Positions 36 to 45,545 of a stretch of 50,341 bases of DNA are shown here, in pieces. The position numbers were made by a program, and so were the translations under genes. How positions within the stretch are numbered: position 1 is the first letter of the stretch; each line of letters starts with the position of its first letter. The stretch is from Anaerolineae bacterium. GTDB lineage: Bacteria > Chloroflexota > Anaerolineae > B4-G1 > SLSP01. A model generated the notes under the pieces. That model saw only the letters and a program-made list of their open reading frames with translations, did not search any database and had not been told where the DNA came from. Location of the stretch: positions 1 to 50,341 of the forward strand of contig DAOUAY010000060.1 of NCBI GenBank assembly GCA_034432995.1. The letters are read 5' to 3'.

Positions 36-1172
36 CTAACTGTTCGAATAGGCTGGGGGCGTGGCGGTCTTAGCTTCCGCCAGGCGCGCATAGACCCGGA
101 GTAAAGTAGATTCCTGCGCCTTCCGTTGAACCTCGTACCAGGCCCGGCCGGAAGACCCCATACGCTCCAGTTTGACCGGATCACCCAGCACGCGCTCCAG
201 GCAACGAGCCAGGGCCGCGGGATGATCCGGTTCAACGATAAATCCCGTTTCCCCTTCCCGCACATATTCGGGCAAAGCGCCTGTACGGGTGACAATGACC
301 GGTTTGCGAAAATAGTAGGCGGCAGCGATAAGCGCCGACTGCGAAGCATCGATGTAAGGCAACACCACCAATCCGCAACGGCAGAAAAGGTCCATAGCCT
401 CCTCATCATTGATCTGGTGGTTATGAATTTCTAATCGGGCTGGCAACGATCCGCCCCAATATTGCGATAAATCCCCAAAGCCGGCGATGATCACCCTGCC
501 AGGAAACGACTTGTCCGTCTTCAGCATGGCACAGGCTGAGATGAGATACTCGACGCCCTTATACGGTTTCAGACGGCCAAAGAAAAGCGCCCACGGCTGA
601 TACTCAACGGATGCCGCAAGATTCGGCAAAGCCCCGAGCCAACTACCGCCGATGAAAAGATGCAACAAAGGGGTCGAGGTCACCCGTTCACGGGGAACGC
701 CCATATCCAAAAGGCTGCGCACGAAAGTTTGTCCGTGGACGAGAATGTGATCCGCGGTGCGGACGACCTGCTGGTTCCAGAGCCGAGTCCGCACCCCGTG
801 GCGACTCGCCCACGGCGGGTCCACCGTGTGGAGGGTGTGCATGACAGGCAATCCCCGCGCCTTTAGCTTGCGCATTAAGGACAGGTTCCAGATGTGCGGC
901 CCAGCAAAATGCACCAGATCAGGGTCTATATCGGAAATCGTCCTGCTGGCTTTACGCAACCCGGCAAGCCTTATGACATCCAATGCAGATCCCGTATTCA
1001 CCGAGTCGATCGGCGTATGCACGTTAACAGCAGGGATGTAACGGTCAAGTGGGGCTTGAGACGATGTTACCAGGTGGACATCATGGCCGGCTTGAGCCAT
1101 GCGGTTAGCAAGATCGGCGGCGTATTGGTGCATCTCGAAGATTGGTGAGAGAAGAGTGTAACAGATTCGCAT
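36..1172 (-). CDS. Glycosyltransferase family 4 (GT-B fold)
   Basis: 378-aa ORF with ATG at 1172 and GGGAG 8 nt upstream. N-terminus MRICYTLLSP...AADLANRMAQAGHDVHLVT and C-terminal PVIVTRTGALPEYVREGETGFIVEP (EX7E-like) are typical of GT4. Confidence 0.8.
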   Translation of the reverse strand: MRICYTLLSPIFEMHQYAADLANRMAQAGHDVHLVTSSQAPLDRYIPAVNVHTPIDSVNTGSALDVIRLAGLRKASRTISDIDPDLVHFAGPHIWNLSLMRKLKARGLPVMHTLHTVDPPWASRHGVRTRLWNQQVVRTADHILVHGQTFVRSLLDMGVPRERVTSTPLLHLFIGGSWLGALPNLAASVEYQPWALFFGRLKPYKGVEYLISACAMLKTDKSFPGRVIIAGFGDLSQYWGGSLPARLEIHNHQINDEEAMDLFCRCGLVVLPYIDASQSALIAAAYYFRKPVIVTRTGALPEYVREGETGFIVEPDHPAALARCLERVLGDPVKLERMGSSGRAWYEVQRKAQESTLLRVYARLAEAKTATPPAYSNS

Positions 1173-1204
1173 GTCGATGACTCCCGGATAATTTCTCTTA
1201 TCCC

Positions 1205-2116
1205 TTACATCGTACGCAATTCGATCAGCAGCCGGCGGTAGATCCGCGCACGACTGGCAAGCCCAGGCTTCAATTTAGAGGCCAGGCCTACAGCAATAAA
1301 CCGCGGCCAATAAGCCAGCCACAGCAATCTCTTGAAATGCTCTGCCCGTCGTGAGCCGCCAAATTTACGGTGGAATTGCGCCTTGCTCCGGTAGAGTTGG
1401 ATATACATCTCCTCGGCGATCTGGCGTGAGCTGGCTTCGCCATAATGTTTCACCTTCGCCTCAGGCACCCACCAAAGCGTCCAGCCAGCCTCCAACAAAC
1501 GATAACAGAGGTCCATTTCCTCGGTGTACATGAAATATTGATCATCCAGAAGCCCCACCTGATTCAACGCTTCTCGTCTGAGCAGGAAACACGCCCCCTT
1601 GATCACTTCTACCTGACGCGGCGTCGATTGATTCCAGCGCGTCTGGGCATAAGTTGCCCTGTGCCAGAGCCAATCCAGAAACATCAACCGCCAGAACTCC
1701 CGCTCCGGCGTCAACAGTGGATGGCACGATGGTTGCAGCGTTCCATCTGCATTGAGCAACATAGGGCCACAGCCACCAGCATCAGGGTGCGCATCCATAA
1801 ACTCGGCCATCGCCTCGACAGCGCCAGCGAACACTTCGGTATCGCTGTTGAGCAAGACGACGTAACGGCCCGTGCTCTGTAGGATGGCCTGGTTGTTAGC
1901 CCGCGCAAAGCCAACGTTCTGCCCATTGTCGATCAGGTGAACGTGCGGAAAGCGTTCACGTACCATTTGTGAACTGCCATCGGTAGAAGCGTTATCGACG
2001 ACGAATGTCTCGACACTAAACCGGTCTGCGTTTACAGCGCACGCTTCCACGGATTGCAGACACTGTGCGAGAAGGTCTTGGGTGTTCCAACTAACGACGA
2101 TGATGCTTATGTCCAT
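1205..2116 (-). CDS. Glycosyltransferase family 2
   Basis: 303-aa ORF. Motifs ISIIVVSWNTQDLL..., VVDNASTDGS, NVGFARANN and LLNSDTEV are GT2 (GT-A) signatures. Confidence 0.85.
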   Translation of the reverse strand: MDISIIVVSWNTQDLLAQCLQSVEACAVNADRFSVETFVVDNASTDGSSQMVRERFPHVHLIDNGQNVGFARANNQAILQSTGRYVVLLNSDTEVFAGAVEAMAEFMDAHPDAGGCGPMLLNADGTLQPSCHPLLTPEREFWRLMFLDWLWHRATYAQTRWNQSTPRQVEVIKGACFLLRREALNQVGLLDDQYFMYTEEMDLCYRLLEAGWTLWWVPEAKVKHYGEASSRQIAEEMYIQLYRSKAQFHRKFGGSRRAEHFKRLLWLAYWPRFIAVGLASKLKPGLASRARIYRRLLIELRTM

Positions 2117-2152
2117 AATCCCCGATTATGTCCGCCTGCTTTTGATGATTGT

Positions 2153-4033
2153 CTAATACGCTCTTACGATCACCGGTAAATAGATTCGATAGGGATTGGC
2201 GATAACAACCGCGACGGCGGTGCTTGCGCCTCCCTCCTGATCCAAAAGTTCGGCAACGTTCACCAAAAGCTCGCGGTTGACCGTGTCGACGCTGACTGTG
2301 TATGTGATGAAGACTTGCTGGTCCGACACAAGCCTCGCCGTCCAGGTGAGCCGGTGTTCATCCTGGTCATAGACCGGAAAGACTTCGGTTCCGTATACCC
2401 GCACATCATCTAGCCAGTCCACACCACTCGCCAGGGTATCCGTCAGTATGAGCGTGGTACCGGGACTGCGGAACTTTAGCACATACGTAACATCCTCACG
2501 ATAATTGGCGCCAGACCGATCCGCTCGTTTCTCCAACTGCGCGACCGGGTCTCCCCAAGTAACCGTGAGTGTCGGTCGCCCCGCGCCGTCACCGCCTGCA
2601 TCGGAACTGAAGAAGTACTTCCCGCTGTTCATAGGCCAATTGGGCGAGTAAAGCGCCAACCGCAACGGCGCTCCGGTCGCATAAGCCTCGGCGACAGCCC
2701 CACTCACATCCCAGTGTCTGGGGATACCAGGCCAGGGTGGTGTTTCGTCCAAAGGATCAACCCAGGTCGCCCCGACGTAGTCTCCCGCCAGCGGTGCGTT
2801 GTTCCACGTGAGTGTGTTCTCCGCCCAATCCTCACGAACTGTAAAAACCTGTATGAAAGAAGGTTGCGGTCCCGGCGACGCCCCGGCACCCGCATTTCCG
2901 AACTGGTAAAGCGTCAACGTCGCGGAAAGCACCACTTTGCCTTGCGGCAGGCTGTACAATGGAAACGTCACATAAGGGCGCGAATCACAGGGCCAATCCA
3001 TTTGTTGTTCGGTGCGCTGGACGTTGAGAAAGATTTCCCCGGCGTAGTTCAGGTCGCCCCAGTTCAAGAAGTAGTCTGGGGCCGCGGCGTCACCACAGAG
3101 ATTGCTTCCTCCCGCCGCCGCATCGATCACCGTCACTCCGTTCAGGCCGTGGCGGATAACTGCCGTTGCACGGGGCAGAGCAGGCGCAGGAATGTATACC
3201 GGCTTCAGGCCATAGTGGAGCTGTCCCCAGGAGGCCGGACGCAAAGGCAGCATCGTCTCGGGCCATACCTGTGCTGCGAACGGAGGTCCCGCGGCGCTAT
3301 CGCGATCATGCACCGCAACCCCAAGCCCCCAAACCGTTCCCTGAGGCGGACGACCAGCAAGCCCCAGACTGCCGTATGGAATGGTATAATAAGCTAACCA
3401 CCCCCGGTCGTCCGTATTATTGTTTGGCACATCGCCGATCCACCCGGTCGAGGCGGTGAAAGGCACAGAAGCCAAAACCCACTGTCCCGCATCGCCCCGG
3501 TAAGCCGTCTGAAAATTGGGGTGACTCTCGCCGCTCCAGTTCAGTTGCACATCGAAGCGATAACTGCCGTCGCCGGGCAACTCACCGACAGCACCGCTGA
3601 GGTTCAGGTAGACGGAGGCCGCGTCCCAGTCCGGCAAAGTACCAGGAGTAGGGTTGGCATTGTACCAGAGCCGGCGGTCGAAAGTGCGCAAGGCCAGGCG
3701 CAGGCTGTCATTAGCGGCGATAAGGCGCACGTCGGTGTAGTTCACATCAGGCGTGACTCGTCCAAACCAGAAGATGCCCGCTTCGTTGAACGATCCGGTG
3801 TGCGGTACATAGACGCGCCGTTGCGGTGTTGCGTGCCCTTGTGGAACGACGTTCGCTGTGGGGGGAAGCGGTACGGCGGAAACATCCAGGTTTGCCGCAC
3901 GCGCCCTTAAGCCTACGATTAACAATATCACCCAAGCCAGTGTCAACAGCCATCGCACCCCACGGTTCCCGGGGCGGCGGGAGCTCCGGGCAAACACATC
4001 GAGTCGACGTGCGCTTGAATTTGCGCCTATCAT
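2153..4033 (-). CDS. Secreted/anchored protein with DNRLRE-like domain and DUF11-like C-terminus
   Basis: The 730-codon ORF overlaps the upstream gene (stop at 4102) in its first ~80 codons. In-frame ATGs at 4096 and 4033 precede a basic/hydrophobic signal-anchor (RRPGNRGVRWLLTLAWVILLIVGLRARA). Contains FTVREDWAENTLTWNNAP (DNRLRE-type motif). C-terminal beta-sandwich-like region ends IANPYRIYLPVIVRAY. The exact start is uncertain. Confidence 0.7.
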   Translation of the reverse strand: MIGANSSARRLDVFARSSRRPGNRGVRWLLTLAWVILLIVGLRARAANLDVSAVPLPPTANVVPQGHATPQRRVYVPHTGSFNEAGIFWFGRVTPDVNYTDVRLIAANDSLRLALRTFDRRLWYNANPTPGTLPDWDAASVYLNLSGAVGELPGDGSYRFDVQLNWSGESHPNFQTAYRGDAGQWVLASVPFTASTGWIGDVPNNNTDDRGWLAYYTIPYGSLGLAGRPPQGTVWGLGVAVHDRDSAAGPPFAAQVWPETMLPLRPASWGQLHYGLKPVYIPAPALPRATAVIRHGLNGVTVIDAAAGGSNLCGDAAAPDYFLNWGDLNYAGEIFLNVQRTEQQMDWPCDSRPYVTFPLYSLPQGKVVLSATLTLYQFGNAGAGASPGPQPSFIQVFTVREDWAENTLTWNNAPLAGDYVGATWVDPLDETPPWPGIPRHWDVSGAVAEAYATGAPLRLALYSPNWPMNSGKYFFSSDAGGDGAGRPTLTVTWGDPVAQLEKRADRSGANYREDVTYVLKFRSPGTTLILTDTLASGVDWLDDVRVYGTEVFPVYDQDEHRLTWTARLVSDQQVFITYTVSVDTVNRELLVNVAELLDQEGGASTAVAVVIANPYRIYLPVIVRAY

Positions 4034-4101
4034 AGAGTGCGGGACGATCGGCTCGGGCGCGTCGCGCCACCTGTTGCAGGTACCGTATGAGCGCATGGCG
4101 T

Positions 4102-7100
4102 CTATCGGTTTCGGAGCACCACGGGCAGATAGCACTGCAACGGGTTGGCGATAATCGTCACCGTGCGTGTGTAGTTCCCCCACGCTTCTCCATCGACTTG
4201 CATCTCGTTGGTCAATGCCGTGGGTTGCCCAGTCGTAACCTGCGTCGTGTATGAGATCACGATCGGATTCGTACTGGAGAGCACTCCCTGCCAATGGATG
4301 GACTGCGGCGAGCACGTCGGTGGATTGCCCCACGAAGCCTCGCACAGTGCAGGGTAATATACCAAACCGGCAGGTAGTAAATCCGTTATGGTCATAGAAA
4401 CCGTCTGCGTCGGGGGCGCGCCACTATCACGTACAGTCAGGGTGTAGGTAAGCACTTCACCCGCGCGAGCGGTCGAACTCGAGGTCGTTTTGGAAACGTC
4501 CGGTGTGGCCGCAGTAGCTTCCAATGTAAGAATCAGGTTCTGAATGTAGAACAGGTCCCCGCGCACAAAGCCTGGCACATCCAAATAACGGGCCAGTTCC
4601 GCACCCGGCTCTTGAAAGATCATCGCCTTGACGGCAAACAGCGCGTTATAGTCATACAAGTGCTGTAGGGTAATCTCGTTGTAGGTGGCCTCATAGTTGG
4701 TTACGAACCAGTATGGAGCATCGTGAGTATACTCGTCAAACGCCACCTGCACCTTGCCGAGTGCGTGGTCGCGCAAATACTGCCCTAATTCCGGCGTCAG
4801 AAAAATAAAGTTGCGGGCCACGGCCAGAGTCTGGCCCCAGTCATGCGCGTCAGGCCCCCAGGGATTATCCTTATCGAACGCCGATATTCGCAGCGCCAGC
4901 AAGCGATCCAGGGTCGCCTGTCGAGCCGTATCGGGCGGGTAACCAGCGAGTTTCTGCAATTCGAGATAGCCTTGCAAGCCGGCTATCCAGGCGTTGTGCG
5001 CAAAGGGGTATTGCGCCAATATATAATCGCTGGGCGGTGTCCACATCCGTTCCCGGCACCGGTCGAACAACGCGCGCGCATTGCCAAAAGTCTCAGCGTA
5101 CTTCCACACGGCATAGAATGTATGCGGCGTCCATTTCCAGTCTGGTCCGGTCCATCCTGCAAAGTCATACGTACTCCACATCGAAGGCGGATAGAGCGGC
5201 ATCGCCACGACGACTTCGGGCGGTAAATCGAAGCCTTCCCGACCAGCGCCGGCGCTCCACCCGATGTGCGTGTAACTGCACGGATGATAATCTCTGAATA
5301 GGTTCTGCAAGTATGTACTGACTTGCTGTCGCAGTGAAGGTGGAAGATACGGATAAGCGCGCGTCAACACCAAAATCGTATCGGCGGGATTGTGCCAATA
5401 GTCGGTTAGATTATCGCCAAGCTCTGATATAGCCTTGGAAGAGAACGCGCCATTGATCCCAAACCCTGGGCGTAGATGACCGGCGGCGACGATGTTCTGG
5501 ATTTCCTCGGTCAGGCGCTGCTGCAAAACGTTCCTATCGACAGGCTCAAGCGGCTCAGTCACCGCAACGATGCTGGCGCGCGGCAAGGCTTTAGCGCCGC
5601 CGGTCGCGGAAAAGGCAATGACGGCGTTGCTGCGATGTATGTATACCTTGCCCCGGTAGGGAATCGGAGCGTTTTGGTCGCCATGATAACCGTAGACGCC
5701 GTTCCAACCGCCGAACACCGTGACCGCATTCGCCTCGTACGTACCGGTTGTTCCTACATTGTAGCCAGGGATTAACCCTGGCAGATTATAGCTAAAAAAC
5801 AGGTACTTGTTGCCGATCATATCGTATGCCCCGGCCGAACGATCACAACATTGATTCCAATAGATAAGGTTGCCACCGCCCGAGTAACCCAGCGGTTCGT
5901 CGTGGGCTGTGACACCTGAAATCCGGGGAGCACGGATGATGCTAGTACCGGGAATCCAACCAGCGACCGCATGACCGTACTTTTGCTCGGAATAGGTATT
6001 GAATGTGTACACGTTGCCATCCGGCATAATGAGCGCCGGGTAACGGCTACCCGAATTTGTCCCGGCACTCAACAAGGGAGCATATTCCGGCTGACCATTG
6101 TGATTGAAATCGTAAGTAATTTCCTGACCGGTCGCAGCATTCAAAATATAGTACGATCGCAACCACGGCTTAGCCTCCAGATAGGTCATCGCCGCAGTCC
6201 CATCCCTGGTACCGTCCGGTTGTTGCGGAGAAAAACCAGACGACAACCCAGGTTCGCCAAGAGTATACCAATCATAGGGAAAACCATCAATAGGTGGAGT
6301 CGTAAGCCGATAAGGCCGTTGCGCTGAGAGAATGACCATATTGCCGCTAACGACGGGCCACCATGAGTGGAAGCCCGCGCTCGGCAATTTGGCGGACTTC
6401 CAGACCAAACTACCGGATAATGCATTCAAGGCGTAGGCATGCGCATCATTCGAGGCAAAGTAGATCGTCTGATGGTTGGCACTGGCAGCGGCTGAAAAGT
6501 GAATCGGCCCATCGGTTTTGTATTGCCAGGCCAACGTACCCTTGCGCGCCGCATCGTCATTCGAATAGATAGCGTAGAAGGTACCGTCCCGATTGCCCAG
6601 GTAAACCCGATTGTTGACGACTAAAGGGTTAGTGTCAAAACCGGCTTCCGCCTCAAAAGTCCACAGCCCCACCCCGGTGGCAGCGTTGATCGCGTGCAAT
6701 TTATGATCCATACCGCCCACATAAGCCACACCGTTGACGACTGTGGGCGCATTGCCCAACGGCATGGCGGTGGGATAGACCCAGCTTTGCGCTCCCGTTG
6801 CAGCGTTTAGAGCATACAGCCCGTTAGCCGTGCTGATGAACAACGACCCGTCTGCCGCAATGATCTGGACCTTGTTCGGAATGTACGACTCGAACACCTT
6901 GTACCATTCCGGCTTAAGATTACCACGCACCTCTTCTGACGTCCACGAAGTGCGTTGAGGATTGGCTGCCGCCATCGGCCAGTTAGCCTCGGCGCTCGTC
7001 TCTTCCAGAGCTTCGTCTCCGAGCAAGTCATGGTGAGTGACATCGAAGGACTCCCAACTTTCCCGCGCGCGCGTGTCCACTACGGAACCTTCACCCTCGA

Positions 7101-9991: not shown

Positions 9992-9994
9992 CGC

Positions 9995-19218: not shown

Positions 19219-19300
19219 TGTATATCCTCCATGCCTGGATAAAAAACACTGAAACGATCCTCACAGCAATCCAGAGCATTGACCCGCCAACGTCCAGGCA

Positions 19301-20278: not shown

Positions 20279-20324
20279 TGTAATTCTCCTTTGCTTAGCA
20301 GACCTTGATTGACAACGCAAAGCC

Positions 20325-25212: not shown

Positions 25213-25332
25213 AGAATATCCTCAAGCTAAACAGGATTTACGCAAATCGGCTACATTCTACCGCCGAGCACGCAGAGAGCGCAGAGAATTTGTAATTTTT
25301 CAGCGGCCTCGGCGGTGAAAAATCCTGATCGA

Positions 25333-25995: not shown

Positions 25996-25997
25996 AG

Positions 25998-26630: not shown

Positions 26631-26633
26631 TGC

Positions 26634-28972: not shown

Positions 28973-29007
28973 CGGAAAGTTTTCGTTCCTGGATGCGCCA
29001 GCGTCGA

Positions 29008-34236: not shown

Positions 34237-34242
34237 GGTTAA

Positions 34243-35778: not shown

Positions 35779-36038
35779 GGGATACCTTGTTTCGCACAAA
35801 TGTAGCGCGTCAGGCGCTCCACAGAGTCGAAGTTATCGGGGACGACCTCCTCATCTTTCACCTCGACATCGAAAGTTTCCTCTACAAATAACAGGAGTTC
35901 TAGGATGCCGGTGGAATCTACAATGCCGTCTTCAAGAAAGGAAGCAGTGTTGTGTAGCTTTCCTTCATCTTTGGTGTAAAGGAAATTCTCCAGGATGTAG
36001 GTGCGAATTTGTGTTTCTATTGATAGTGTTGTAGACAT
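35772..36038 (-). CDS. Acyl/peptidyl carrier protein
   Basis: 88 aa. GIVDSTGILELLLFVEETF carries the phosphopantetheine serine context (DSxG). Markedly AT-richer than flanking genes. Confidence 0.8.
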   Translation of the reverse strand: MSTTLSIETQIRTYILENFLYTKDEGKLHNTASFLEDGIVDSTGILELLLFVEETFDVEVKDEEVVPDNFDSVERLTRYICAKQGIPC

Positions 36039-36077: not shown

Positions 36078-38708
36078 TTAGCGCTTCATAAGCTTCACGA
36101 CCACCATGCCACCGACAAGCAAGAGCGCAATCCCTATCCCCCCAAAGGCTAACATCGGCAAAGTTATCGGCCCGAGCGCCAACACCGGAGCCGACGGCTG
36201 GGCCGGGTATGGATTCACCGCCGGGCGCGGGGTCGGTGTCGGGACTGGTGTTGATTCAGGCATTGGAACCGCGGTTGGCACAGGGGCGAGATTCGGCACG
36301 AACGCCGGCCGGCTCTCAATGCTGCGGCGCGTATGCCAGAGCATAGGCGTCAATACCTTGTCCTGGCGCTTGCTCCCCAGTCCTACCACATCGATGAACC
36401 CTGATTCACCAGCCACCGCTAGGGCAGCCCCGCCGGTTGGTGCATAAACGCCTGCCAACTCGACCGAGTCAAGGCTAGACCACTGCCCCTCAGCATAGAC
36501 AAGATAATGTAACAGGACGGCATCTCCGGTTTTCGTGCCCAGTGCAGTGATATGCAGTCTGCCCGAATTATCCTGTGTCATTACTGCGTATCCCTCAATC
36601 GCTTGCAGACCAGGAATTTGAGAGACATAGTCCCAGGTCAATCCATAATCACTGGAACTGCGATGCTGGACAATGTTACGCGCCAGATCCTGCCACGTGA
36701 CGACAACCTGTCCGGTCAAGGTGGCAGCGACCTGCGGCCAATCGTGAGCGCCATCGGTCAATAGCATGGCGTCCGTCCATGTTTCGCCTTCGTCCGTTGA
36801 GCGCGCATAATACACACCCTGGGGCAACCCGAAGCCTGGCAGCGGCGCGCGAACCCAAACCACGTGAATCACTCCGTTTTCATCTACGGTGATGTCAGGA
36901 TGATCCACGCAGGGCCAGCCTTCTGCCCCAGCATCAAAGAGCTGTACGGTCTCTTGCCACGATTCGCCATTATCGTCGCTGCGGGCGTAATAGATGCCGC
37001 GCCCTTCATTGAACGGCACGGCATAAACCACGTGTAATCGCCCCAGCAAGTCGGCGGTTATCGCGGGGATGCCCCCCACAACAGCCTCATCGGACATTGC
37101 CCGCTGGCTCCAGCCACTGACAGCAAAAGCATCGTTAGGATAAGCCCGACTGTAAAACACTGTCCCTGTTGACCCACCATTCCAGACGGCGTGGAGAAAC
37201 GGCTCGACATAGACCAAGGCTGGCGCTTGAGCCACTCCCTCATCGGCGCCGAGAACCGCCACCGGGCGGCTCCAGGAAGTTTGATCGCGCCGACTATAAT
37301 ACAGCATGGATCCAGCCTGGCCCACAGAACGCGGAGCGCTCCACATCACGTGAACTCGCCCCTCAGCATCTGTCGCGACTGCCGGAAAACCAGGAGTACC
37401 CCCGTCCTCAAAAATAATCGTGGGACCGGCCCATAGTGAGGGTGGCGCGAAGGTCCATTCCAACGCGTCGACCTGCCCTTCCAGCACCCAGATGTCGCCA
37501 TCGCGATCCTGACCGGTCACAACAAGTTTGTTATCCCGTGTTACGCCAGTTCGCAGCGCTTCCAGGTAGGTCGTTGTACCGGTCTGGGGATTCTCGAAGC
37601 TGAAGCTCAAGCGCTTCGACGCCGACCATTGTTCCCCATTCCATGCCGCCATTGACAGATATCCGGTATCTTCTCCACGCATGAAAAGCAGTAGACCTGC
37701 TGGCGTTTGCGCTGTCACAATTTGCACCGGGCACGACGGCAAATCCTCGAAAAACCGCGATGCTGTGGACCAGGTCTTCCCACCATCTTCGGAACGCTGT
37801 TGCTGCAAGACGCATGTGGAGGCTACGCCGCCCTGCTCCCATAGCGCCACAAATCCTGCTGCTTGCCCCTGACTCGACAAGGCGGGCAGCGCGATAAAGC
37901 GCGGATGCAGTCCAACAATGTGCCCGTCTCCCACTTCAGCAGGCTCAGTCCAGGAAAGGCCCCCATCTGTCGAGAAAACATAGAACGCGACTGCCTGTCG
38001 AGGATCATCCCAACCCGCCACGACGTTACCCGACGCATCTGCTGCAAGTGATAAATGGACCGTATCCGCCGTCCACAGCCGGGCATAGAGCGACGTGTAC
38101 AACGCTACCGGTTCTGACCAGGTAACACCGCCATCGGTCGAGCGCAAGTGATAGATGCCCGCCGGAAATGCATCCAATTGCTGCGTCTGGCAGTAGACTA
38201 GATGCAAGACGCCTTGAGCGTCACTCGTCAATTCCCAGGCGATGGCCGATTCTGCCAACACCTCAGGGGTCGTCCATACCGTCGTGCCCAGGCGAAGGCG
38301 GCTATACGACAACGAACGCAGGTTTGTTACCCGGTCAGGTTCTCCCAACCATAAGGCAAGAGCCGTCTCACCTATGCCTACAATCTGGGGCATAGCAGAA
38401 ATGGTTGAAGGAATCAAGAGATCGCTCTCCGCTTCTGGCATTTGGATAGGCGCCGGTGTAGGAGCGGACCAATCATTATCAAGCGCATAGGCCGTTGTCA
38501 GCCCGTCGAAGCGATCCCACCAGAAGACCTGAGTCTGCCCGTCGGGACCTACCACGAGCACAGGAGATTCCGCTGCGCCAGAGCGCGAGAGGTTGATCGG
38601 CTCCGACCACAACGCATCATCCGTTTGGGTAAAACCCGCTTTGTGCCCGCCCAGCGACAACAGGCAGACGATCACCCACGCGACGATCACTCGACTCACG
38701 CGGCTCAA
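36078..38708 (-). CDS. Large BNR/Asp-box multi-propeller protein, signal peptide plus Pro-rich stalk plus C-terminal TM anchor
   Basis: TTG start with GGAGGA 6 nt upstream. Asp-boxes STDGGVTWSEP, STDGGLSWTEP, SEDGGKTWSTA, SDDNGESWQET, STDEGETWTDA and SSDYGLTWDYV. Ends ...PVPTPTPRPAVNPYPAQPSAPVLALGPITLPMLAFGGIGIALLLVGGMVVVKLMKR. Confidence 0.8.
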   Translation of the reverse strand: MSRVSRVIVAWVIVCLLSLGGHKAGFTQTDDALWSEPINLSRSGAAESPVLVVGPDGQTQVFWWDRFDGLTTAYALDNDWSAPTPAPIQMPEAESDLLIPSTISAMPQIVGIGETALALWLGEPDRVTNLRSLSYSRLRLGTTVWTTPEVLAESAIAWELTSDAQGVLHLVYCQTQQLDAFPAGIYHLRSTDGGVTWSEPVALYTSLYARLWTADTVHLSLAADASGNVVAGWDDPRQAVAFYVFSTDGGLSWTEPAEVGDGHIVGLHPRFIALPALSSQGQAAGFVALWEQGGVASTCVLQQQRSEDGGKTWSTASRFFEDLPSCPVQIVTAQTPAGLLLFMRGEDTGYLSMAAWNGEQWSASKRLSFSFENPQTGTTTYLEALRTGVTRDNKLVVTGQDRDGDIWVLEGQVDALEWTFAPPSLWAGPTIIFEDGGTPGFPAVATDAEGRVHVMWSAPRSVGQAGSMLYYSRRDQTSWSRPVAVLGADEGVAQAPALVYVEPFLHAVWNGGSTGTVFYSRAYPNDAFAVSGWSQRAMSDEAVVGGIPAITADLLGRLHVVYAVPFNEGRGIYYARSDDNGESWQETVQLFDAGAEGWPCVDHPDITVDENGVIHVVWVRAPLPGFGLPQGVYYARSTDEGETWTDAMLLTDGAHDWPQVAATLTGQVVVTWQDLARNIVQHRSSSDYGLTWDYVSQIPGLQAIEGYAVMTQDNSGRLHITALGTKTGDAVLLHYLVYAEGQWSSLDSVELAGVYAPTGGAALAVAGESGFIDVVGLGSKRQDKVLTPMLWHTRRSIESRPAFVPNLAPVPTAVPMPESTPVPTPTPRPAVNPYPAQPSAPVLALGPITLPMLAFGGIGIALLLVGGMVVVKLMKR

Positions 38709-39250
38709 ATCAGATCCTCCAAATCCAGTTCCGTCTTGACCAAACGGCTCATGACGTTCAAAAAGACCAACACCCGGCCTTTGGGCGTGATCTGCTGATC
38801 GAATATCGCCTCCAGTCCCTCCAACGGACCGCGAGCGATGCGTATCACTTCGCCTTTCTTGAAGGGCGCGTCAAACACATCCGTAACCTGCATATTCTCA
38901 AGTCGGCGGCGAAGATACATCACAACTTCGTCGGGAACGACAACCGGACGCCCACCGGCAGCAACGATACGCCGTAATCCAGGGGTCCAACACACATCAG
39001 CAAACCGCTGCTCGCCGGGGTCGAAATAGGCAAAGAGATACTGCGGTAGGAAGGGCTTCATACTGCGACGGTCACGCCGGCGCACGACCACAGCGATCTG
39101 GGGAATATAGGTTTCCACCCCGCAGTTACGGAGCACTTCCTGCACGAGGTATTCTTTGTGCGGTTTGGTGTACAAAGCATACCAGTTGCGGTGCGACTGC
39201 GCCTGCTTGCTTTCCCCCTCCGCACAAACTTGTATGTCCGCCTCATCCAT
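38705..39250 (-). CDS. NusG-family specialised paralog (NGN plus KOW), RfaH/LoaP/UpxY-like
   Basis: ATG at 39250 with AAGGAAAGGAG upstream. NGN-like WYALYTKPHKEYLVQEVLRNCGVETYIPQ and KOW-like FKKGEVIRIARGPLEGLEAIFDQ. Located inside a glycan locus, not in a secE-nusG-rplK context. Confidence 0.8.
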   Translation of the reverse strand: MDEADIQVCAEGESKQAQSHRNWYALYTKPHKEYLVQEVLRNCGVETYIPQIAVVVRRRDRRSMKPFLPQYLFAYFDPGEQRFADVCWTPGLRRIVAAGGRPVVVPDEVVMYLRRRLENMQVTDVFDAPFKKGEVIRIARGPLEGLEAIFDQQITPKGRVLVFLNVMSRLVKTELDLEDLI

Positions 39251-39311: not shown

Positions 39312-41246
39312 TCATGGCTGGGCTGCTCGCTGCTCGGCCTCTTGTGCTTTTTGTAGGGCGTCCTCAGCGCCTTCAGGATGCACTAACGCAATCGTCCGCC
39401 AGGCATAAGCAGCCCGTACAAAATCATCGTTGACCCAGTAGCGATCCCAAGCCTGACCCTCTAAACGCACTTGTGCCCAGGTAAGACCGGCGACTACCTC
39501 GGCAGCCTCTTCGACGCGGCCCAGCGCTACCAGCGTATCACCGCGCAGCAACCGCGTCACAGGGTCGCGGTGCCCCGCTTCCCAGGCAGCCTCAATATGA
39601 TGAAAGGCGGCTTCATACTCACCGCGCGAAAGATGAATACCCGCCAATCGCTGCCGCGCCGTGGCGTTCCGCGCGTCAAGAGCGATGGCGCGCTGGAAGA
39701 GCGCCGTACTCGCTGTCAAATCCTCCGCTTGCCGCACGGAGTCTACGATGTAGCCGGGGGTCTTCCCGAACTCGTAACGCGCCAACTCCACCCGCGCCTG
39801 GCGCATCGCGCCCAAGCTGGCATAGCCTTGCGCTACCAGAGGGCGCCAGAACCAAACGCCCAAGGCCAGCAGCAGACCCAGAGCGCCTATGGCCCACTGT
39901 CTTCTTTGAGGGTGAGGCGCTGCCGGCGGCGCACCCGCCGCCGCTACCGCCCACTCCACAAGCGCAAACGGCACCAAGAAGAGCAACAACCACTGGCTTC
40001 CGTAGAGCACATCCTCCACCTGCCCGTGGATCACAACCGCCGCGAGCGAAACCAGCCCTGCCTCGATGATCCAAGCCTGCTGCCAATCCACACGCCGCAA
40101 CGCGCGCATCGCCTGCCAGATACAAAGGATCACCAAACCCAGGAACAGCAGCAGTCCCGCTATGCCTTGCTCGACCAGCAAATCCACGAAGACATCGTGG
40201 CTATTGTGGATATACCCCACGTGGATGAGCAAGGTGTAGATCGAGAAATTCAACTGGAACGTGCCCAATCCCGATCCCGTGAGTACGTAATCCCAAGCCA
40301 GCGGCAACGAGTCTTTCAACAGTGACAACCGGCCTGTTATCGCGCCCGCACCGGGCAGATCGTAAGCCAGCACGGCGAAAAGCCCAATCACCACCAGCGC
40401 CCCGCCGAGAACAAGCGCTCCGGCGATCCACTGCAAGCGCGCTCCATCTGTAAAGCGACGACCCAGCCAACGCCACAGCCCCCACAGCGAGAAGCTCACC
40501 AACGTGGCAAACCAGGCGCCCCGCGTCGTCGTCACCAGCAGACCAAACAGGACGATCCCTGCCGCCGCCACCCACAGAAAGGGAAGTGTGCGCCGCAGCC
40601 AGCCGGGCAAACACAAAGACGTTTCCTTGTGAGCCAACCGCGCCAACGGCACGTAGAAAGGCAACGTCATCGCCAGCAGACCGCCGATGATGTTGGGATT
40701 GGTCGCCTCTGCCGCCGCCCTCGGCAGCAGCGCCGAGATCGACTCCCCCAACGCTACCAGCGCGGGCACTTTGAGCGGATGGGCGCTCCAGTCGTTGGTC
40801 AGGAAGAAATAGACCGTGAGCGCCACGCCGAACAGCCCCCCGATGGTCAACACACCATACAGATGCTTGAGATCCGGCTGATTGACCAGCGCGTAGTAAA
40901 GGCCCCAGGCGCCCACCACGAGCCAGAACTTGGCCCACGCCGGCCCAGGCGCGTAAGCCGTCTGCGTTCCTATCAGCGCCGAGAGCAAAAAAAGCAACAG
41001 CAGTATATCAACCAGCTTGATGTCGCTGGGCGTAAACCGCCGCAATAAGCCGGTGCGCCACCGGTAAAGCCCCCACATCAGCACCAGCAAGAGCGCTGCC
41101 CAAGAGCCAGGCCAACTACTCAGGTGCGACACCGCGCCGCCTTGCGTATACCAAAGCGCCCCGGCAAACAGCGCGCATCCCAATTCAATGTAGGGCGATA
41201 GAGCGCGCAGTTTCGATGGTGAGAGTGTAGAAGCCGGTTCGCTCAC
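39312..41246 (-). CDS. O-antigen ligase (Wzy_C) family membrane protein fused to C-terminal TPR repeats
   Basis: GTG start. About 12 hydrophobic segments. GYIHNSHDVFVDLLVEQGIAGLLLFLGL (Wzy_C-like). C-terminal ~170 aa with TPR-like helices (ALDARNATARQRLAGIHLSRGEYEAAFHHIEAAWEAG...). Confidence 0.75.
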   Translation of the reverse strand: MSEPASTLSPSKLRALSPYIELGCALFAGALWYTQGGAVSHLSSWPGSWAALLLVLMWGLYRWRTGLLRRFTPSDIKLVDILLLLFLLSALIGTQTAYAPGPAWAKFWLVVGAWGLYYALVNQPDLKHLYGVLTIGGLFGVALTVYFFLTNDWSAHPLKVPALVALGESISALLPRAAAEATNPNIIGGLLAMTLPFYVPLARLAHKETSLCLPGWLRRTLPFLWVAAAGIVLFGLLVTTTRGAWFATLVSFSLWGLWRWLGRRFTDGARLQWIAGALVLGGALVVIGLFAVLAYDLPGAGAITGRLSLLKDSLPLAWDYVLTGSGLGTFQLNFSIYTLLIHVGYIHNSHDVFVDLLVEQGIAGLLLFLGLVILCIWQAMRALRRVDWQQAWIIEAGLVSLAAVVIHGQVEDVLYGSQWLLLFLVPFALVEWAVAAAGAPPAAPHPQRRQWAIGALGLLLALGVWFWRPLVAQGYASLGAMRQARVELARYEFGKTPGYIVDSVRQAEDLTASTALFQRAIALDARNATARQRLAGIHLSRGEYEAAFHHIEAAWEAGHRDPVTRLLRGDTLVALGRVEEAAEVVAGLTWAQVRLEGQAWDRYWVNDDFVRAAYAWRTIALVHPEGAEDALQKAQEAEQRAAQP

Positions 41247-41258
41247 ACGCCTTCTCGC

Positions 41259-42914
41259 TTACTTCCAACCCAATGTTTCCAGCCCGATACGCACTGCTGA
41301 GGTGATCATACTCGGATCGCCGAGCAACAGCTTGAGATAGGTCAGCATTGGCTTGGGACGGAAGGCCCACTCGCGGAAGGCGCGCTTGGCCCACCGTTCC
41401 AGGTCTTCGGCCTTGAGGTTGGGATAATCCAACACGGTGGAACGATCCATGTCCACGTCTTCCCAGCGGGTGCCGGGACGAAACCAGCCGTTCTCCACCA
41501 CCTCGAAAAAGAAGGGCGTGCCGGGATGCGGCGCCGCGATGTGAAAAAGGATCAAATCGAGCGGCAGGCGCTTGGCAAAATCGATCGATTTGCGGATGCT
41601 GGCCTCGGTCTCGCCGGGCAAGCCAATGATGAAGTAGCCCCAGTTCATGATGCCGGCCTCTTTGGCCCAGCCCAGCGCCTTCTCCACCTTCTCCAGCGTG
41701 ATGCCCTTGTTCATCCGCTTGAGCATCTCCGGCTCGCCGGACTCGATCCCCCAGGAGATCATCCAGCACCCGGCGCGGCGCATCTGTTGCAGCAATTCCA
41801 GATCGACGAAATCCACCCGGCTGTTGCACGTCCAGCGAACCGGCAATTTCCGTTCGAGGATACCTTCGCAGATGCCCATCACGTGCTCGCGGTTGACGGT
41901 GAACAGGTCGGTGTACATGTGAATCTTGCGCACACCCAGATTCACCAACACTTCGATCTCATCGACCACGTTCTCCGGCGTGCGAAACCGCACCGACGCG
42001 CCGTAAGAGACGTGCTTGATGCAAAAACGGCATCCGGCCGGACATCCTCGGCTGGGAACGGAGAAGGCATACGGCCCGCCGACCAGCGGCGCACGATAGG
42101 CTTTGAGGGGCAATAAATCGTGGCGCGGCAATGGCAGGTCATCGAGATTGGCAATGTAGGGGCGCGGTGGATTGATGACGACCTCAGAGCCATTGCGCCA
42201 AACCAGGCCCTTGATCCTGGTGAGCGGCGCATCGCCATCCGCAAAATGGGCGGCGTGCCAGAGAGGCTGCCAGCCGGGATCGTGCGTAGTAAATAAACGC
42301 TTCAGCCGCAAAGCGAAATCCGGTGCGGCGCTGGGCCACCAAACATCGTCTCCGCCACCGCCGTCGCCCGCCGATGCTGCGCCGTTCCTCATCCGTTCGG
42401 ACACATCGACGAGTTCGCGCAAGGTCAGTTCCGGCTCACCGAGCAGCACGTAATCCAGGGCCGGGTAAGTCTTCATCGTCGAGGCCGGCATCGGCGTCAC
42501 GTGGGTGCCAAAGGCCATCGTGACTGCGCCGCGCGCTTTTGCCAGGAAAGCGCCGTACATGTCATTTTGCAACGTAGGCGCCGTCACCTGAGTGATGTAG
42601 TAACGCGGTCGTTTCTCATCCAGCAACCGCTCGAATTCGGCCCACGACATCCGTTCAGGCATCGCATCGATCACTTCGACGCGGAAATCGGGGAAGAGCG
42701 CCGCCATCTGCGCCAGATCCACCTGCGGCCAGATCATGCCTTCGCGCGAGCGCCGCCCTACCCGGTGTTGGCTGCGAATCCATATCCCGCCATCGGGCGC
42801 GGGCGGATTGACGAGCAGAATATCGACGGCGCTGGGCGGACGTTTTGCCAGTTCCTCGTAGAGCAGCGCGTCGGTATTCGGAAAGTTGGGGGCTACAATT
42901 CTTTGTTGAACCAC
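41259..42914 (-). CDS. B12-binding domain radical SAM protein (class B)
   Basis: GTG start. N-terminal Rossmann-like DILLVNPPAPDG... region and radical SAM cluster motif SRGCPAGCRFCIKHV (CxxxCxxC). 551 aa. Confidence 0.8.
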   Translation of the reverse strand: MVQQRIVAPNFPNTDALLYEELAKRPPSAVDILLVNPPAPDGGIWIRSQHRVGRRSREGMIWPQVDLAQMAALFPDFRVEVIDAMPERMSWAEFERLLDEKRPRYYITQVTAPTLQNDMYGAFLAKARGAVTMAFGTHVTPMPASTMKTYPALDYVLLGEPELTLRELVDVSERMRNGAASAGDGGGGDDVWWPSAAPDFALRLKRLFTTHDPGWQPLWHAAHFADGDAPLTRIKGLVWRNGSEVVINPPRPYIANLDDLPLPRHDLLPLKAYRAPLVGGPYAFSVPSRGCPAGCRFCIKHVSYGASVRFRTPENVVDEIEVLVNLGVRKIHMYTDLFTVNREHVMGICEGILERKLPVRWTCNSRVDFVDLELLQQMRRAGCWMISWGIESGEPEMLKRMNKGITLEKVEKALGWAKEAGIMNWGYFIIGLPGETEASIRKSIDFAKRLPLDLILFHIAAPHPGTPFFFEVVENGWFRPGTRWEDVDMDRSTVLDYPNLKAEDLERWAKRAFREWAFRPKPMLTYLKLLLGDPSMITSAVRIGLETLGWK

Positions 42915-42962
42915 AAAATCACGCCTTGTATTTGGATTGATGACGCTGTCGCGCCCACACGT

Positions 42963-44252
42963 TCAGCTAATATAATCGCGGTCGAGGTCGGCGCCGATGA
43001 GGATCTCGCGCTGGCTCAGTTCGTCCAGGACGCGCATGATCACCCAGAAGATCACCAATTGCACGCCCATCAACACGAGCATCGCGCCCGCCGTCAGATA
43101 GAGCCACAATCGCGTGATGTCCCAGCCACTCAAGCCCAAAATCAGGCTAAACACGCCGATGACGAAGCCACCTGACATAGCAGCAAGCCCCATCCAGCCA
43201 AAAGAGCGATCCAGGGGCGGCTCGAAGATGGGCTTGCCGAACAACCCTTTCTGCACGACGTCCTTGTTGAACAGGGCCACCAGATAATTGAAGGTCGCGC
43301 CGAGAGCGAATAGCGTGAAGCCCACCAGGCCGAAAATCATTGCCGCGAAAACCCCGGTCACACCCCAGGGTCCAAGTTGGTTCACACCGCTCAACCGCAA
43401 GATCATCAAGCCCAGGGCAATCAGTACTCCAGCACAGAACAACCCGAAGCCCACACCACCGAGCGGTCGGGCAGGGTTGTACGTCAGCGCCGTCCAGATG
43501 ATGGTTTGCAGGAATCGCATGCCATCGCGCACCACACTAAGCTTGGAACGGCCGGCCCGCTCCTCGTAAGGCATCGGGATTTCCGCAAACTTCAACCCTT
43601 CGTGCACCGCGCGGGTGCTCATCACCGGCGTAAAGTTCAAACCATCGGGGAGCGGATAAAGCCGGAGCAGCGTCTCACGGCGGAAGACGCGCATGCCGCT
43701 GGCCGGATCGACGACCGGCCTGCCGCTGAGCGCCGTGACGAGATTGGCCCAGATGAAGTTACCCACTTTGCGCACGAACGGCATACCGCTGGACGCGCCG
43801 GAGCGCCGCGAACCGACAACCACGTCGGCGCCCTCTTTGATCGCCTGGCAGAGTTCGGGAAATGACTCCGGCGGATAGGTGCCGTCGGCGTCGAGAAAGC
43901 CGAGCAGGTCGCCGCAGGCCGCGCAGAAGCCGGTTTTGAGCGCCGCGCCATAACCGCGGTTTGGGCTGTGCTGGAGCAAGCGCACGCTCGGATAGCCTCG
44001 CACAATTTCGGCCGTGCGATCTTTAGAACCATCGTCGACCACCAGCAGTTCCAGTTGCAGCCCGATAGCCGCCAGCGCCGGTTCTACCGCCAGCACACGC
44101 TCTACGATATCCGCGATGCCGTCTTCCTCGTTGTAGGCCGGGATGACCACCGAAAGCATCCGCGGAATCCCTTCCTGCTCCAACAAACAGGCTTCTTCAG
44201 TGTTGATGCTCTTGTCCGTGCTCTTCACGACTGTTTCCACCGCTGCTACCAT
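42963..44252 (-). CDS. GT2 polyprenyl-phosphate glycosyltransferase-like (DPM1/GtrB-type) with four C-terminal TM segments
   Basis: LSVVIPAYNEEDGIADIVERV, LLVVDDGSKDRT and FLDADGTYPPE, followed by hydrophobic segments. An alternative ATG at 44159 has AGGAAGG upstream, so the start is uncertain. Confidence 0.8.
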   Translation of the reverse strand: MVAAVETVVKSTDKSINTEEACLLEQEGIPRMLSVVIPAYNEEDGIADIVERVLAVEPALAAIGLQLELLVVDDGSKDRTAEIVRGYPSVRLLQHSPNRGYGAALKTGFCAACGDLLGFLDADGTYPPESFPELCQAIKEGADVVVGSRRSGASSGMPFVRKVGNFIWANLVTALSGRPVVDPASGMRVFRRETLLRLYPLPDGLNFTPVMSTRAVHEGLKFAEIPMPYEERAGRSKLSVVRDGMRFLQTIIWTALTYNPARPLGGVGFGLFCAGVLIALGLMILRLSGVNQLGPWGVTGVFAAMIFGLVGFTLFALGATFNYLVALFNKDVVQKGLFGKPIFEPPLDRSFGWMGLAAMSGGFVIGVFSLILGLSGWDITRLWLYLTAGAMLVLMGVQLVIFWVIMRVLDELSQREILIGADLDRDYIS

Positions 44253-44307
44253 TGCGCCTCACTTTCCCATTTACACGGCTGTTTTGTACGTAAGTTACTT
44301 TTTTGTT

Positions 44308-44347
44308 CCGCGCTCCGCCCTTCCGACAAGCTGTGCTGGTCAGAAGG
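44308..44347 (-). promoter_or_regulatory. Conserved leader element, copy A: 9-bp hairpin followed by GCGGAGCGCGG (ops/JUMPStart-like)
   Basis: Minus-strand RNA reads CCUUCUGAC-N11-GUCGGAAGG-GCGGAGCGCGG. A 24-nt core is identical to 45295-45318. It lies 56 nt upstream of the ATG at 44252. Confidence 0.5.
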
Positions 44348-44506
44348 ATCAGTGGTATTCAACTTGAGGGGCTGCGCAGTTAAACCACAAGCCTCTACTT
44401 ATTCCAGGGTACACCCAATCGACGAAAAAAAAGTTAGCATTACATCGCAATTATGTGGCAACTTCGTAAGTGATCACGTGGACATCATCCCTACTCGATC
44501 GATCCC

Positions 44507-45262
44507 TCAATCCACAGACAGATAGACCGGGCCACGCTGCGCATCTGTCGAACCATCGATCTCGCGTAGAACCCGGGCCGGCACGCCGCCGACAACGGTG
44601 TGGGCAGCCACGTCTTTGGTCACTACAGCGCCGGCCGCAATGACCGCGCCCTGCCCCACCCGCACTCCATCCGTGATCACCGCCCCGGAGCCAATCCACA
44701 CGTCATCCTCGATCACGATCCCCTCCGCCGTGATGCCCTGTTCCACAAAAGATCGCTGCGGATCGTCGAAAACGTGATTGACGGCAATGATTTGCACCAT
44801 CGGAGAAGTATAGACCCGATCCCCGATCGTCACGCCGCCCTGTCCGCGAATCACAGTATACTCGCCGACGAGACTATCCCGCCCGATATGGATACCGGCA
44901 TGGGGCAAATCGCGGAAGTTGTAGACGTGGAGCACTGCCCCATGCATAACCAGCGTCCCTGCACCAATCGCCACCCCTTGCGGGCAGGCGTGGATGTACA
45001 CCCCTTGATCGAGATATGCGCCACGCCCCAACCGCAGGTGATTGGCAAAACACACCCTCACGCCAGGCTCGATAGCCGCCAATCCCTCCATCTTCAACAT
45101 CAAACGGTAGAAGACAGCACGCAATCCTATACCCAGAGGTGTGGGAATCCAGCCAAACAGAACCTGCAGGAGTTGCTCGAGCAGGTAACGCAGAGGCGTG
45201 TCAGCCTGGCGGTGTAAGTAAAGGCTCAGACCAGCCGTAGGGTGACGTTGATTTGAATCCAT
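44507..45262 (-). CDS. Hexapeptide-repeat acetyltransferase (WcaF-like), first gene of the minus-strand cluster
   Basis: Hexapeptide region [15 protein letters not shown]...[18 protein letters not shown]...[32 protein letters not shown]. Start chosen at ATG 45262 because the longer ORF (GTG 45397, ATG 45340) would translate through the conserved leader element. The start is uncertain. Confidence 0.7.
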
Positions 45263-45294
45263 CGAACTCAACGCGTAAGATTCCCCTCTCTGTA

Positions 45295-45334
45295 CCGCGC
45301 TCCGCCCTTCCGACAAGCAACGCCAGTCAGAAAG
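45295..45334 (-). promoter_or_regulatory. Conserved leader element, copy B: 9-bp hairpin followed by GCGGAGCGCGG (ops/JUMPStart-like)
   Basis: Minus-strand RNA reads CUUUCUGAC-N11-GUCGGAAGG-GCGGAGCGCGG. It lies 33 nt upstream of ATG 45262. Differences from copy A keep pairing as G-U wobbles only in the sense orientation. Confidence 0.5.
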
Positions 45335-45545
45335 CGTCATCACTGTTTGTTGCGGGACCACCTCAGGTTGCCGGACAAAAGCCAGAAACTGAGACACTCC
45401 AGTGTGAGAAAGAATTGATACTATAGTATACTACCAACAACACAACAGAAACGGGTGATATGAATGCCCCTCCTCATATCATTGGACAACGGATGCTGGT
45501 GGTATACAGAGTCCCGTGTGAGTTGTCTATTCCAGAATATCTACT

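Follow-up and report, generated by a model that had tools for sequence, protein, structure and literature searches.

The window analysed here is a stretch of 50,341 nt from an Anaerolineae bacterium (contig DAOUAY010000060.1 of assembly GCA_034432995.1). It carries 35 successive minus-strand genes, g1 to g34 with g28b, running from 36 to 45262/45397; by their content they form a cluster for the assembly and export of a glycan that encodes surface proteins as well, as the preliminary description of this DNA had stated along with its figure of about 35 genes. Every open reading frame (ORF) of the run except g14 and g16 received a Pfam or NCBIfam assignment. With refined starts, the coding fraction is 96.6% and the median intergenic gap 33 bp; six junctions overlap, only five gaps within the cluster exceed 100 bp, and a one-strand run of 35 genes has a probability of 6e-11 under random orientation. 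A 36th minus-strand ORF (…VMLVIMGAR) starts at about 24-27, i.e. 8-11 bp past the g1 stop, and exits at the left edge, so that the cluster is cut by the window. None of the contigs matched by g27, g2 and the ORF starting at 49195 reaches past that edge, and exact-sequence look-ups with g28 (TTG-start residue included) and with g1 gave no match. To the right of g34 come a divergent histidine kinase, small exported proteins, Zip, RecA and DnaB; since the histidine kinase, RecA and DnaB come next, the right boundary was placed at about 45.4 kb.

Related loci are designated by L numbers. A genome-collection scan with the ligase g28 returned 80 loci, and a tblastn matrix was used to read gene presence. 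The nearest genome loci by g28 belong to a Chloroflexota metagenome-assembled genome (MAG; 92% identity) and to a Thermoflexus sp. (90%), and a near-identical contig occurs in MAG GCA_964534215.1. By these matches, the host is an uncultured member of the Chloroflexota that resembles Thermoflexus. Under the current paradigm the phylum is monoderm, and it lacks outer-membrane genes (PMC10284905). In the genus-level relatives L084-L088 (81-85% identity for g16) the complete gene order is kept, surface-protein genes included, save for small swaps: a third Lcl_C gene, or a WbqC-family gene instead of g22 and g21. The latter was seen in L084 and L085, where one such gene (4913-5629) stands in place of window positions 25998-27602 in a relative that is 85% identical, a serotype-like exchange of a decoration step. 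In class-level relatives (e.g. L005, L006, L022, L027, L056, L062, L063, L066, L092 and L093) the ligase/AsnB module is still accompanied by DUF362, BNR, g4-like, g3-like, Wzy_C, GT4 and GT2 genes; Anaerolinea thermophila carries a locus of the L063 type. Several of the surface-protein genes are thus retained in orthologous loci at both genus and class level.

The glycan-building part of the cluster comprises eight glycosyltransferases, four of family GT4 (g1, g6, g8 and g9) and four of family GT2 (g2, g11, g13 and g33). All coordinates that follow are on the minus strand unless stated. At the left end, g1 (36-1172) gave generic GT4 matches only with NCBIfam and has a 62% identical orthologue in L092; 69% identical orthologues of g2 (1205-2116) adjoin a Wzy_C gene in L092 and L093. 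Beyond the exported proteins g3 and g4 and the Wzy_C gene g5, all treated below, lie the stp1-like GT4 g6, the hexapeptide acyltransferase g7 and the GT4 genes g8 and g9 (8810-13094), then the CE4 polysaccharide deacetylase g10 and the GT2 g11 (13104-15345; PF01522 92.7 bits, PF00535 133.4 bits). The GT2 g13 (16917-18065) also has a weak tetratricopeptide repeat (TPR) match. A block of decoration genes occupies 22989-27602: the sulfotransferase g18, the DesI-like 4-aminotransferase g19, the NeuD/PglB/VioB-type acyltransferase g20, the methyltransferase g21 and the FemAB-like GNAT g22, a Pfam Acetyltransf_6 protein. Two models score below their cut-offs in this block (TIGR04427, 553.6 bits for a cut-off of 650; TIGR03570, 136.2 for 160.8).

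The exporter consists of the Wzt-type ABC ATPase g23 and the Wzm permease g24 (27713-29853; PF00005 and PF01061), for which the best NCBIfam matches are TagH and galactan Wzt/Wzm; the C-terminal extension of g23, about 170 residues long, has no assigned domain and no match to Pfam Wzt_C. The module that gave its ligase to the genome scan lies at 31235-36038 and consists of the WbuX-like PP-loop amidotransferase g26, the AsnB g27 (TIGR01536 504.9 bits, cut-off 267), the acyl-AMP ligase g28 and the carrier protein g28b. Further upstream in the operon direction, g30 (38705-39250; PF02357 63.9 bits) is probably a specialised NusG paralogue of the RfaH/UpxY type: it passes Pfam NusG and falls below TIGR01955 for RfaH (106.1 versus 144.5) and NF033644 for UpxY (83 versus 100). 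The run closes with the B12-binding radical SAM protein g32, the polyprenyl-phosphate GT2 g33, which has C-terminal membrane helices, and the hexapeptide acyltransferase g34 (41259-45262), a block kept in many Anaerolineae. The gap between g34 and g33 is 254 bp of non-coding DNA (44253-44506) in an otherwise tight cluster; the corresponding gaps in L006 and L022 measure 33 and 4 bp.

Two proteins belong to the Wzy_C family, which holds ligases and polymerases. The polytopic membrane protein g5 (7359-8768) reaches 61.4 bits with PF04932 (cut-off 31.7) and has neither NCBIfam matches nor PDB relatives by phmmer. In g31 (39312-41246) the family match (PF04932, 47.9 bits) is followed by a C-terminal TPR domain, to which its phmmer matches in the PDB are confined. 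From sequence, the ligase, polymerase and oligosaccharyltransferase roles of such proteins appear inseparable. The components named in the preliminary description (FemAB-like GNAT, CE4 deacetylase, AsnB, AMP-ligase, carrier protein and several GT4s, as well as the Wzm/Wzt pair, Wzy_C protein and methyltransferase) were all recovered, the Wzy_C proteins being two in number.

At least nine exported or anchored proteins had been announced, and nine were counted with an N-terminal signal or anchor: g3, g4, g12, g14, g15, g16, g17, g25 and g29. Four of them (g12, g14, g16 and g29) have a C-terminal membrane helix and basic tail as well. The accompanying statement that these proteins carry Ser/Thr/Pro-rich linkers held in part: with a threshold of 60% over 20 residues, g25 and g29 pass and no other cluster protein does. 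One of the linkers quoted, SSPTPSPPPTATATTP, lies outside the cluster, at 47448-47495 in a plus-strand lipoprotein.

Several of the nine are propeller or carbohydrate-binding proteins. The exported DNRLRE/CBM96 protein g3 (2153-4096, with the start as called in L091; NF033679 79.6 bits for a cut-off of 34, PF24517 38.3 bits) ends in IYLPVIVRAY and gave only chance-level phmmer matches in the PDB. Its neighbour g4 (4102-7209), by profile matches, combines a PQQ-like beta-propeller, an unassigned region of about 600 residues and a DUF11 domain, and ends in CYLPVVLRNR. The g4-like propeller family has at least 805 members, some of which carry a fused CBM96 (e.g. P0286 and P0333); these fusions tie g3 and g4 together and suggest a functional link between the two neighbours. 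Near the Wzy_C gene g5, both are found in L092, g4 in L093 and g3 in L027. The second group is made of BNR propellers with a signal peptide, a stalk and a C-terminal membrane anchor. Profiles and topology show g29 (36078-38708), whose stalk is Pro/Thr-rich, to be a tandem of two propellers like that of g12 (15371-16840; PF13088 44.8 bits), its one-propeller paralogue with a Pro-rich stalk. Orthologues of g12 occur in L005, L006, L084-88 and L092, and those of g29 in L004-6 (67-69% identity), L020 and L022 (31-32%) and L063 (25%); as a family, the anchored g29/g12 proteins are thus found in L004-6, L020, L022, L063, L084-88 and L092. A weak resemblance of g29 to PL42/GH145 propellers was noted (PDB, E 0.004).

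The lipoprotein g25 (29858-31198) combines a twin-arginine translocation (TAT) signal and lipobox, an AYLPLV motif, a Thr/Pro-rich linker and a DUF362 domain (PF04015 46 bits for a cut-off of 24). Homologues with 39-55% identity adjoin the ligase module in at least nine loci, and the family is marked by strong twin-arginine signals, a frequent lipobox, the conserved AYLPLV motif, the Thr/Pro linker, and His and Lys residues that are invariant across 63 homologues. No PDB match was obtained by phmmer. An AlphaFold2 (AF2) model of the DUF362 domain, with a predicted local distance difference test score (pLDDT) of 85, led through Foldseek to the lactate and malate racemases LarA and Mar (E 6e-5, probability 1.0, template-modelling score 0.36-0.40), and DUF362 and LarA belong to the same Pfam clan, CL0471 (PMC11770544). 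LarA stands for the nickel-pincer racemase family, and g25 might conceivably epimerise or racemise a substituent of the glycan outside the cytoplasm. Together, the conserved exported proteins (g25, g12, g29, g3 and g4) look, from their domains, like enzymes or glycan-binding proteins rather than passive substrates. The remaining four form two tandem copies of a two-gene cassette (18136-22909), each with an Lcl_C/DUF1566 protein (g15 and g17; PF07603 73-83 bits) and an anchored GYAW-repeat protein (g14 and g16). At least 1729 homologues of g16 were found; the g14 model, though confident (pLDDT 88), gave no PDB fold match with Foldseek, and phmmer gave none with the sequence. The cassette has one or more Lcl_C genes in variable copy number, and pairs of Lcl_C/DUF1566 and GYAWGENxGWI-repeat genes lie outside glycan loci, beside housekeeping genes, in L089 (7232-11563) and L090 (9364-15669). 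Since they are self-contained there, these pairs are not tied to glycan synthesis.

The preliminary description had likened the gene set to that of exosortase A/PEP-CTERM extracellular polysaccharide (EPS) loci, and had named scores under the trusted cut-offs of the associated hidden Markov models (HMMs) as grounds for giving up the idea. Every match was under its cut-off or absent: 498.7 bits for the ligase g28 with TIGR03098, its best match (cut-off 592.35), 432.6 for AsnB g27 with TIGR03108 (816.9), 204.8 for the GT4 g6 with TIGR03087 (316.65) and 27.1 for the Wzy_C protein g31 with TIGR03097 (188.1), while g22, g10 and g5 matched none of the PEP-CTERM-associated models, even with the E threshold raised to 10. 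Among the 39 window proteins, none matched the exosortase and sortase models, and a signature-motif scan of the six frames of the window, which found six exosortase-like ORFs in Verrucomicrobiota, was negative. No PEP-CTERM domain was found on the C-terminal segments of g3, g4, g12, g14, g16 and g29 scanned separately, which returned only the YLP-box of g3 and sub-threshold JDVT and GVDTG matches. Membership in the PEP-CTERM/exosortase A group is therefore rejected, the markers being below their cut-offs and exosortase and PEP-CTERM domain both lacking in the window. What survives of the comparison is the homology of the ligase, the AsnB and the carrier, and the profile scans agree with the earlier statement that the window has no exosortase, sortase, Wzx or Wzz.

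That homology extends far. By tblastn, the carrier/ligase/AsnB module, with or without g26, is kept in Chloroflexota, Verrucomicrobiota, Cyanobacteria, Alphaproteobacteria and some Firmicutes-like MAGs. At six Verrucomicrobiota loci (ligase identity 61-64%) the module has an exosortase-signature ORF at a distance of 4-8 kb: L029 15410-16294, L036 17854-18834, L037 17464-18411, L048 11156-12124, L057 15563-16489 and L060 11238-12176. XrtC was the best model for all three that were scanned, with 327.5 bits for L029 (cut-off 300) and 267.4 and 275.3 bits for the others. No such ORF was found near the module in about 50 Chloroflexota loci. The likeness to exosortase-linked EPS loci is therefore a matter of homology and not of chance; literature searches on the ligase/AsnB/exosortase combination returned nothing. 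PEP-CTERM proteins are confined to outer-membrane bacteria (PMC1569441) and, Chloroflexota being monoderm, the absence of an exosortase is expected. Proteins with seven or eight helices encoded after g25 in L005, L006 and L066 were considered as exosortases and rejected: by eye they are acyltransferase-3-like, and the signature is lacking. An eight-helix protein near the module in L027 (11505-12848) was likewise judged by eye to be like GT-C/PMT-type glycosyltransferases.

The absence of an initiating phosphoglycosyltransferase, also pointed out earlier, stands for the window and not for the system. Among the window proteins, the Bac_transf, Wzx and Wzz models had no match. Profile matches make g33 a polyprenyl-phosphate glycosyltransferase of the Dpm1/AglJ/ArnC type, so an enzyme that loads a lipid carrier is present. 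In L092, the g1 orthologue is directly followed by a Pfam Bac_transf gene, at a locus where the g4 orthologue is 77% identical, and in other Anaerolineae loci (L012, L014-18, L024, L027, L062 and L063) the DELPQ motif marks a gene of the Bac_transf type beside the module. As the cluster is truncated and relatives carry such genes, the missing initiator is a statement on the window only, and would be at least partly an effect of the window's edge. The N-terminus encoded by the L092 Bac_transf gene is unlike that of the left-edge ORF (window 1-27).

A short motif, the YLP-box, is shared by three of the exported proteins: it is found at the C-termini of g3 (2153-2185) and g4 (4102-4134) and in the N-terminal region of g25 (31052-31066). 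With g3, both NCBIfam models named 'YLP-box putative sorting motif' are passed (NF050076, 15.7 for a cut-off of 15; NF053834, 13.8 for 10); in g4 the motif was recognised by eye, a model match not being reported. In the g25 family, AYLPLV stands about 15 residues after the TAT signal, with the Pro conserved to at least 90%. Large exported ORFs that have YLPL[VI].R at their ends also occur near the module in other Chloroflexota (L010, L013, L016 and L032). Enrichment near the module was considered and could not be established without genome-wide counts: eight YLP-box ORFs were found among about 800 neighbouring genes. Literature searches on 'YLP-box' gave no paper that describes the motif.

Our preferred reading, to which we give a probability of about 0.55, is that of an envelope-glycan supercluster, the product of which would be linked to a polyprenyl carrier, decorated, exported by Wzm/Wzt and transferred by a Wzy_C protein, the exported proteins being mostly partners of the glycan and not simply its cargo. 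Gene content, synteny and conservation are observed as given above; how the pathway runs, what the exported proteins do and where the glycan is delivered is inferred as follows. The glycan would be started on polyprenyl by a Bac_transf enzyme, encoded past the left edge or elsewhere, and/or by g33, and elongated by the eight glycosyltransferases. It would be heavily decorated: g19 would make a 4-amino-4,6-dideoxyhexose that g20 then N-acylates, methyl, sulfate and acetyl substituents would be added, the AsnB/PP-loop pair g27/g26 would introduce amides, and the ligase/carrier pair g28/g28b would deliver an acyl or aminoacyl group. After export by g24/g23, a Wzy_C family transferase (g31, perhaps g5) would pass the glycan to an acceptor in the envelope. 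The RfaH-like g30 probably aids transcription through the long operon. As for g25, g12, g29, g3 and g4, they may process, modify or bind the glycan outside the cytoplasm; the Lcl_C/GYAW pairs would be a separate mobile cassette, located here by chance in this lineage.

Several points weigh against this scheme. In a monoderm, where lipid A is missing, there is no classical acceptor for a Wzy_C ligase joined to an ABC exporter, and the architecture of g31 resembles, by its description, that of protein O-oligosaccharyltransferases. That the exported proteins are conserved would be expected equally well of substrates; the BNR and propeller proteins match PDB entries weakly (E 0.004), and no catalytic residues have been established in them. 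Finally, several products may come from the one cluster. In that case it would consist of several adjacent and independent same-strand units, i.e. a lipid-linked decoration unit (g34-g26), a variable ABC-exported polymer (g25-g6), a Wzy_C/glycosyltransferase/propeller unit (g5-g1) and the inserted Lcl_C/GYAW cassette. More than one product is possible because blocks recombine among relatives and because the two Wzy_C genes, very divergent, are unrelated at the BLAST level: g32-g34 are on the opposite strand or elsewhere in L012, L014, L016 and L018; g2, g5 and g6 directly adjoin the ligase module in L027, L062 and L066; in L092 the genes are ordered differently and a second AMP-ligase is present; and L084 and L085 show the WbqC exchange for g22 and g21. 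The gaps of more than 100 bp coincide with block borders. Yet the full order is kept in the genus-level relatives, the single RfaH-like gene and the tight spacing suggest long transcripts, and terminator-like sites are not above chance in the sole stretch scanned, 30-47 kb. A division into units is a possibility to be taken seriously, with the odds somewhat against it.

The idea put forward at the outset, a dedicated protein O-glycosylation system with substrates encoded in cis, takes the same genes in another direction. There, g31 and/or g5 would transfer the glycan to Ser/Thr residues in the stalks and linkers of g29, g12, g25, g14 and g16, with a Wzm/Wzt-exported lipid-linked glycan or the polyprenyl-phosphate sugar of g33 as donor, on the model of S-layer glycosylation by WsaB/WsfB. 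Its plausibility comes from g31, since WsfB and PglL are Wzy_C proteins with C-terminal TPR (PMC2943079); the likeness is one of architecture by description, in a family that also spans ligases and polymerases. According to the same paper, slg clusters further include wzm/wzt, an AsnB homologue (wsfA) and a methyltransferase function, and the legend of their map names the S-layer genes sgsE and spaA (PMC2943079). The parallel with slg had been drawn from the combination of Wzm/Wzt, Wzy_C and methyltransferase; the TPR of g31 fits it, and the part that fails is the S-layer protein, as profile scans of the nine exported proteins gave no SLH or other S-layer family. In a monoderm, lipid A-core, the classical WaaL acceptor, would not be available. 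Moreover, g31, g30 and g29 remain adjacent in L005 and L006, as do g31 and g29 in L022; the Thr/Pro-rich linker is retained across the g25 family; the Pro/Thr-stalked anchored proteins are plausible targets; and the exported proteins diverge faster (identity in the same comparisons is 67-69% for g29 and 87-92% for the enzymes). It is therefore possible that the glycan is attached to co-encoded proteins. Against this stand the score of g31 with TIGR03097, far below its cut-off, the failure to find a sequence link to a solved Wzy_C-family protein or a characterised transferase, the small number of proteins (two) that pass the Ser/Thr/Pro test, with one quoted linker outside the cluster, the enzyme- or binder-like look of the conserved exported proteins, and the existence of the Lcl_C/GYAW cassette without glycan genes. 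On balance, we regard a dedicated O-glycosylation system as rather unlikely.

A bolder proposal is that of a monoderm counterpart of the exosortase system, where the YLP-box would be a sorting tag read by an enzyme that couples proteins to the glycan or the wall. The existence of YLP-box sorting models, both passed by g3, the recurrence of the motif on exported ORFs near the module in four other Chloroflexota loci, the conservation of its Pro in the g25 family and the linkage of a homologous module to exosortases in Verrucomicrobiota all speak for it. However, no candidate sorting enzyme was found in the window, eight occurrences per about 800 genes may be no more than the genome-wide average, the motif lacks a describing paper and, unlike PEP-CTERM or LPXTG, it has no adjacent membrane helix; we consider such a tag very improbable. 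Marginally less so, and still a long shot, is the broader notion that Chloroflexota possess a monoderm analogue of the exosortase-coupled EPS/protein system, where the module and g31 would O-glycosylate or glycan-anchor a dedicated, cis-encoded set of surface proteins, namely the type-I anchored BNR propellers and the YLP-box proteins, with the YLP-box as a new recognition or sorting tag.

There is almost no experimental knowledge of how envelope glycans are built in Chloroflexota, a phylum abundant in sludge, sediments and hot springs. The recurrent gene set seen here, made of the ligase/carrier/AsnB module, a TAT LarA-like lipoprotein, anchored BNR propellers, propeller-DUF11 YLP-box proteins and Wzy_C, connects a phylum of monoderms with the EPS loci that accompany exosortases in diderms. 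If g31 is a protein O-oligosaccharyltransferase, then general O-glycosylation reaches a new phylum, with a possible use in glycoengineering; if it is not, the locus is a well-delimited and ordinary envelope polysaccharide cluster.

Outside the cluster, a promoter-like site (TTGCAA-17-TATAAT, minus strand, 45546-45574) lies in the divergent intergenic region 5' of g34; it is a consensus match only, with 10 of 12 positions. A promoter and terminator scan limited to 30-47 kb gave counts not above those of shuffled sequence, and no RNA family of Rfam was found at gathering thresholds. The plus-strand genes beyond it (45580-50202) include a GAF histidine kinase without adjacent response regulator, the lipoprotein mentioned above (47295-48053), which bears an SSPTPSPPP linker, an ORF without assigned family (48059-48730) and, at 49195-50202, a trypsin-like protein that has NAL1-type matches of low strength.

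Set beside known systems, the cluster is partly homologous to exosortase-linked EPS loci and partly analogous to S-layer glycan clusters, with lineage-specific exported partners. With the former it shares, in one locus, the ligase/carrier/AsnB module, an stp1-like GT4, Wzy_C, a FemAB-like GNAT and a CE4 deacetylase; it differs from PEP-CTERM loci in that its host is monoderm while theirs have an outer membrane, and in that the place of exosortase and PEP-CTERM proteins is taken, within the window, by BNR, DUF362 and YLP-box proteins. ABC-dependent pathways, such as those of the E. coli O8/O9a antigens or of teichoic acids (TagGH), resemble it in their polymerisation in the cytoplasm on a lipid carrier and their Wzm/Wzt-type exporter, and the features expected of them are found here: g24 with g23, eight glycosyltransferases and no match of Wzx type. 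In ABC-dependent O-polysaccharide and wall-glycopolymer pathways, the initiating enzyme is often encoded outside the cluster. Unlike in O8/O9a or TagGH, a lipid A-core acceptor is not expected, the window has no LCP ligase and the extension of g23 matches no carbohydrate-binding domain. Like RfaH, UpxY and LoaP, g30 is a NusG-fold factor encoded within a very long polysaccharide operon; unlike them, it scores below the RfaH and UpxY cut-offs, its gene stands inside the cluster instead of at its head, and no ops-like site was identified. As for the slg clusters of Geobacillus stearothermophilus and Paenibacillus alvei, they have in common with it a monoderm host, Wzm/Wzt, a Wzy_C protein (WsfB with TPR), a methyltransferase and an AsnB homologue. 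The window differs from them by its lack of a recognised S-layer or SLH protein, of rml genes and of a WbaP-type initiator; the cluster is also far larger and includes, beyond the shared genes, the ligase/carrier/AsnB module, a B12 radical SAM protein, a polyprenyl-phosphate GT2, an RfaH-like factor and conserved, enzyme-like exported proteins.

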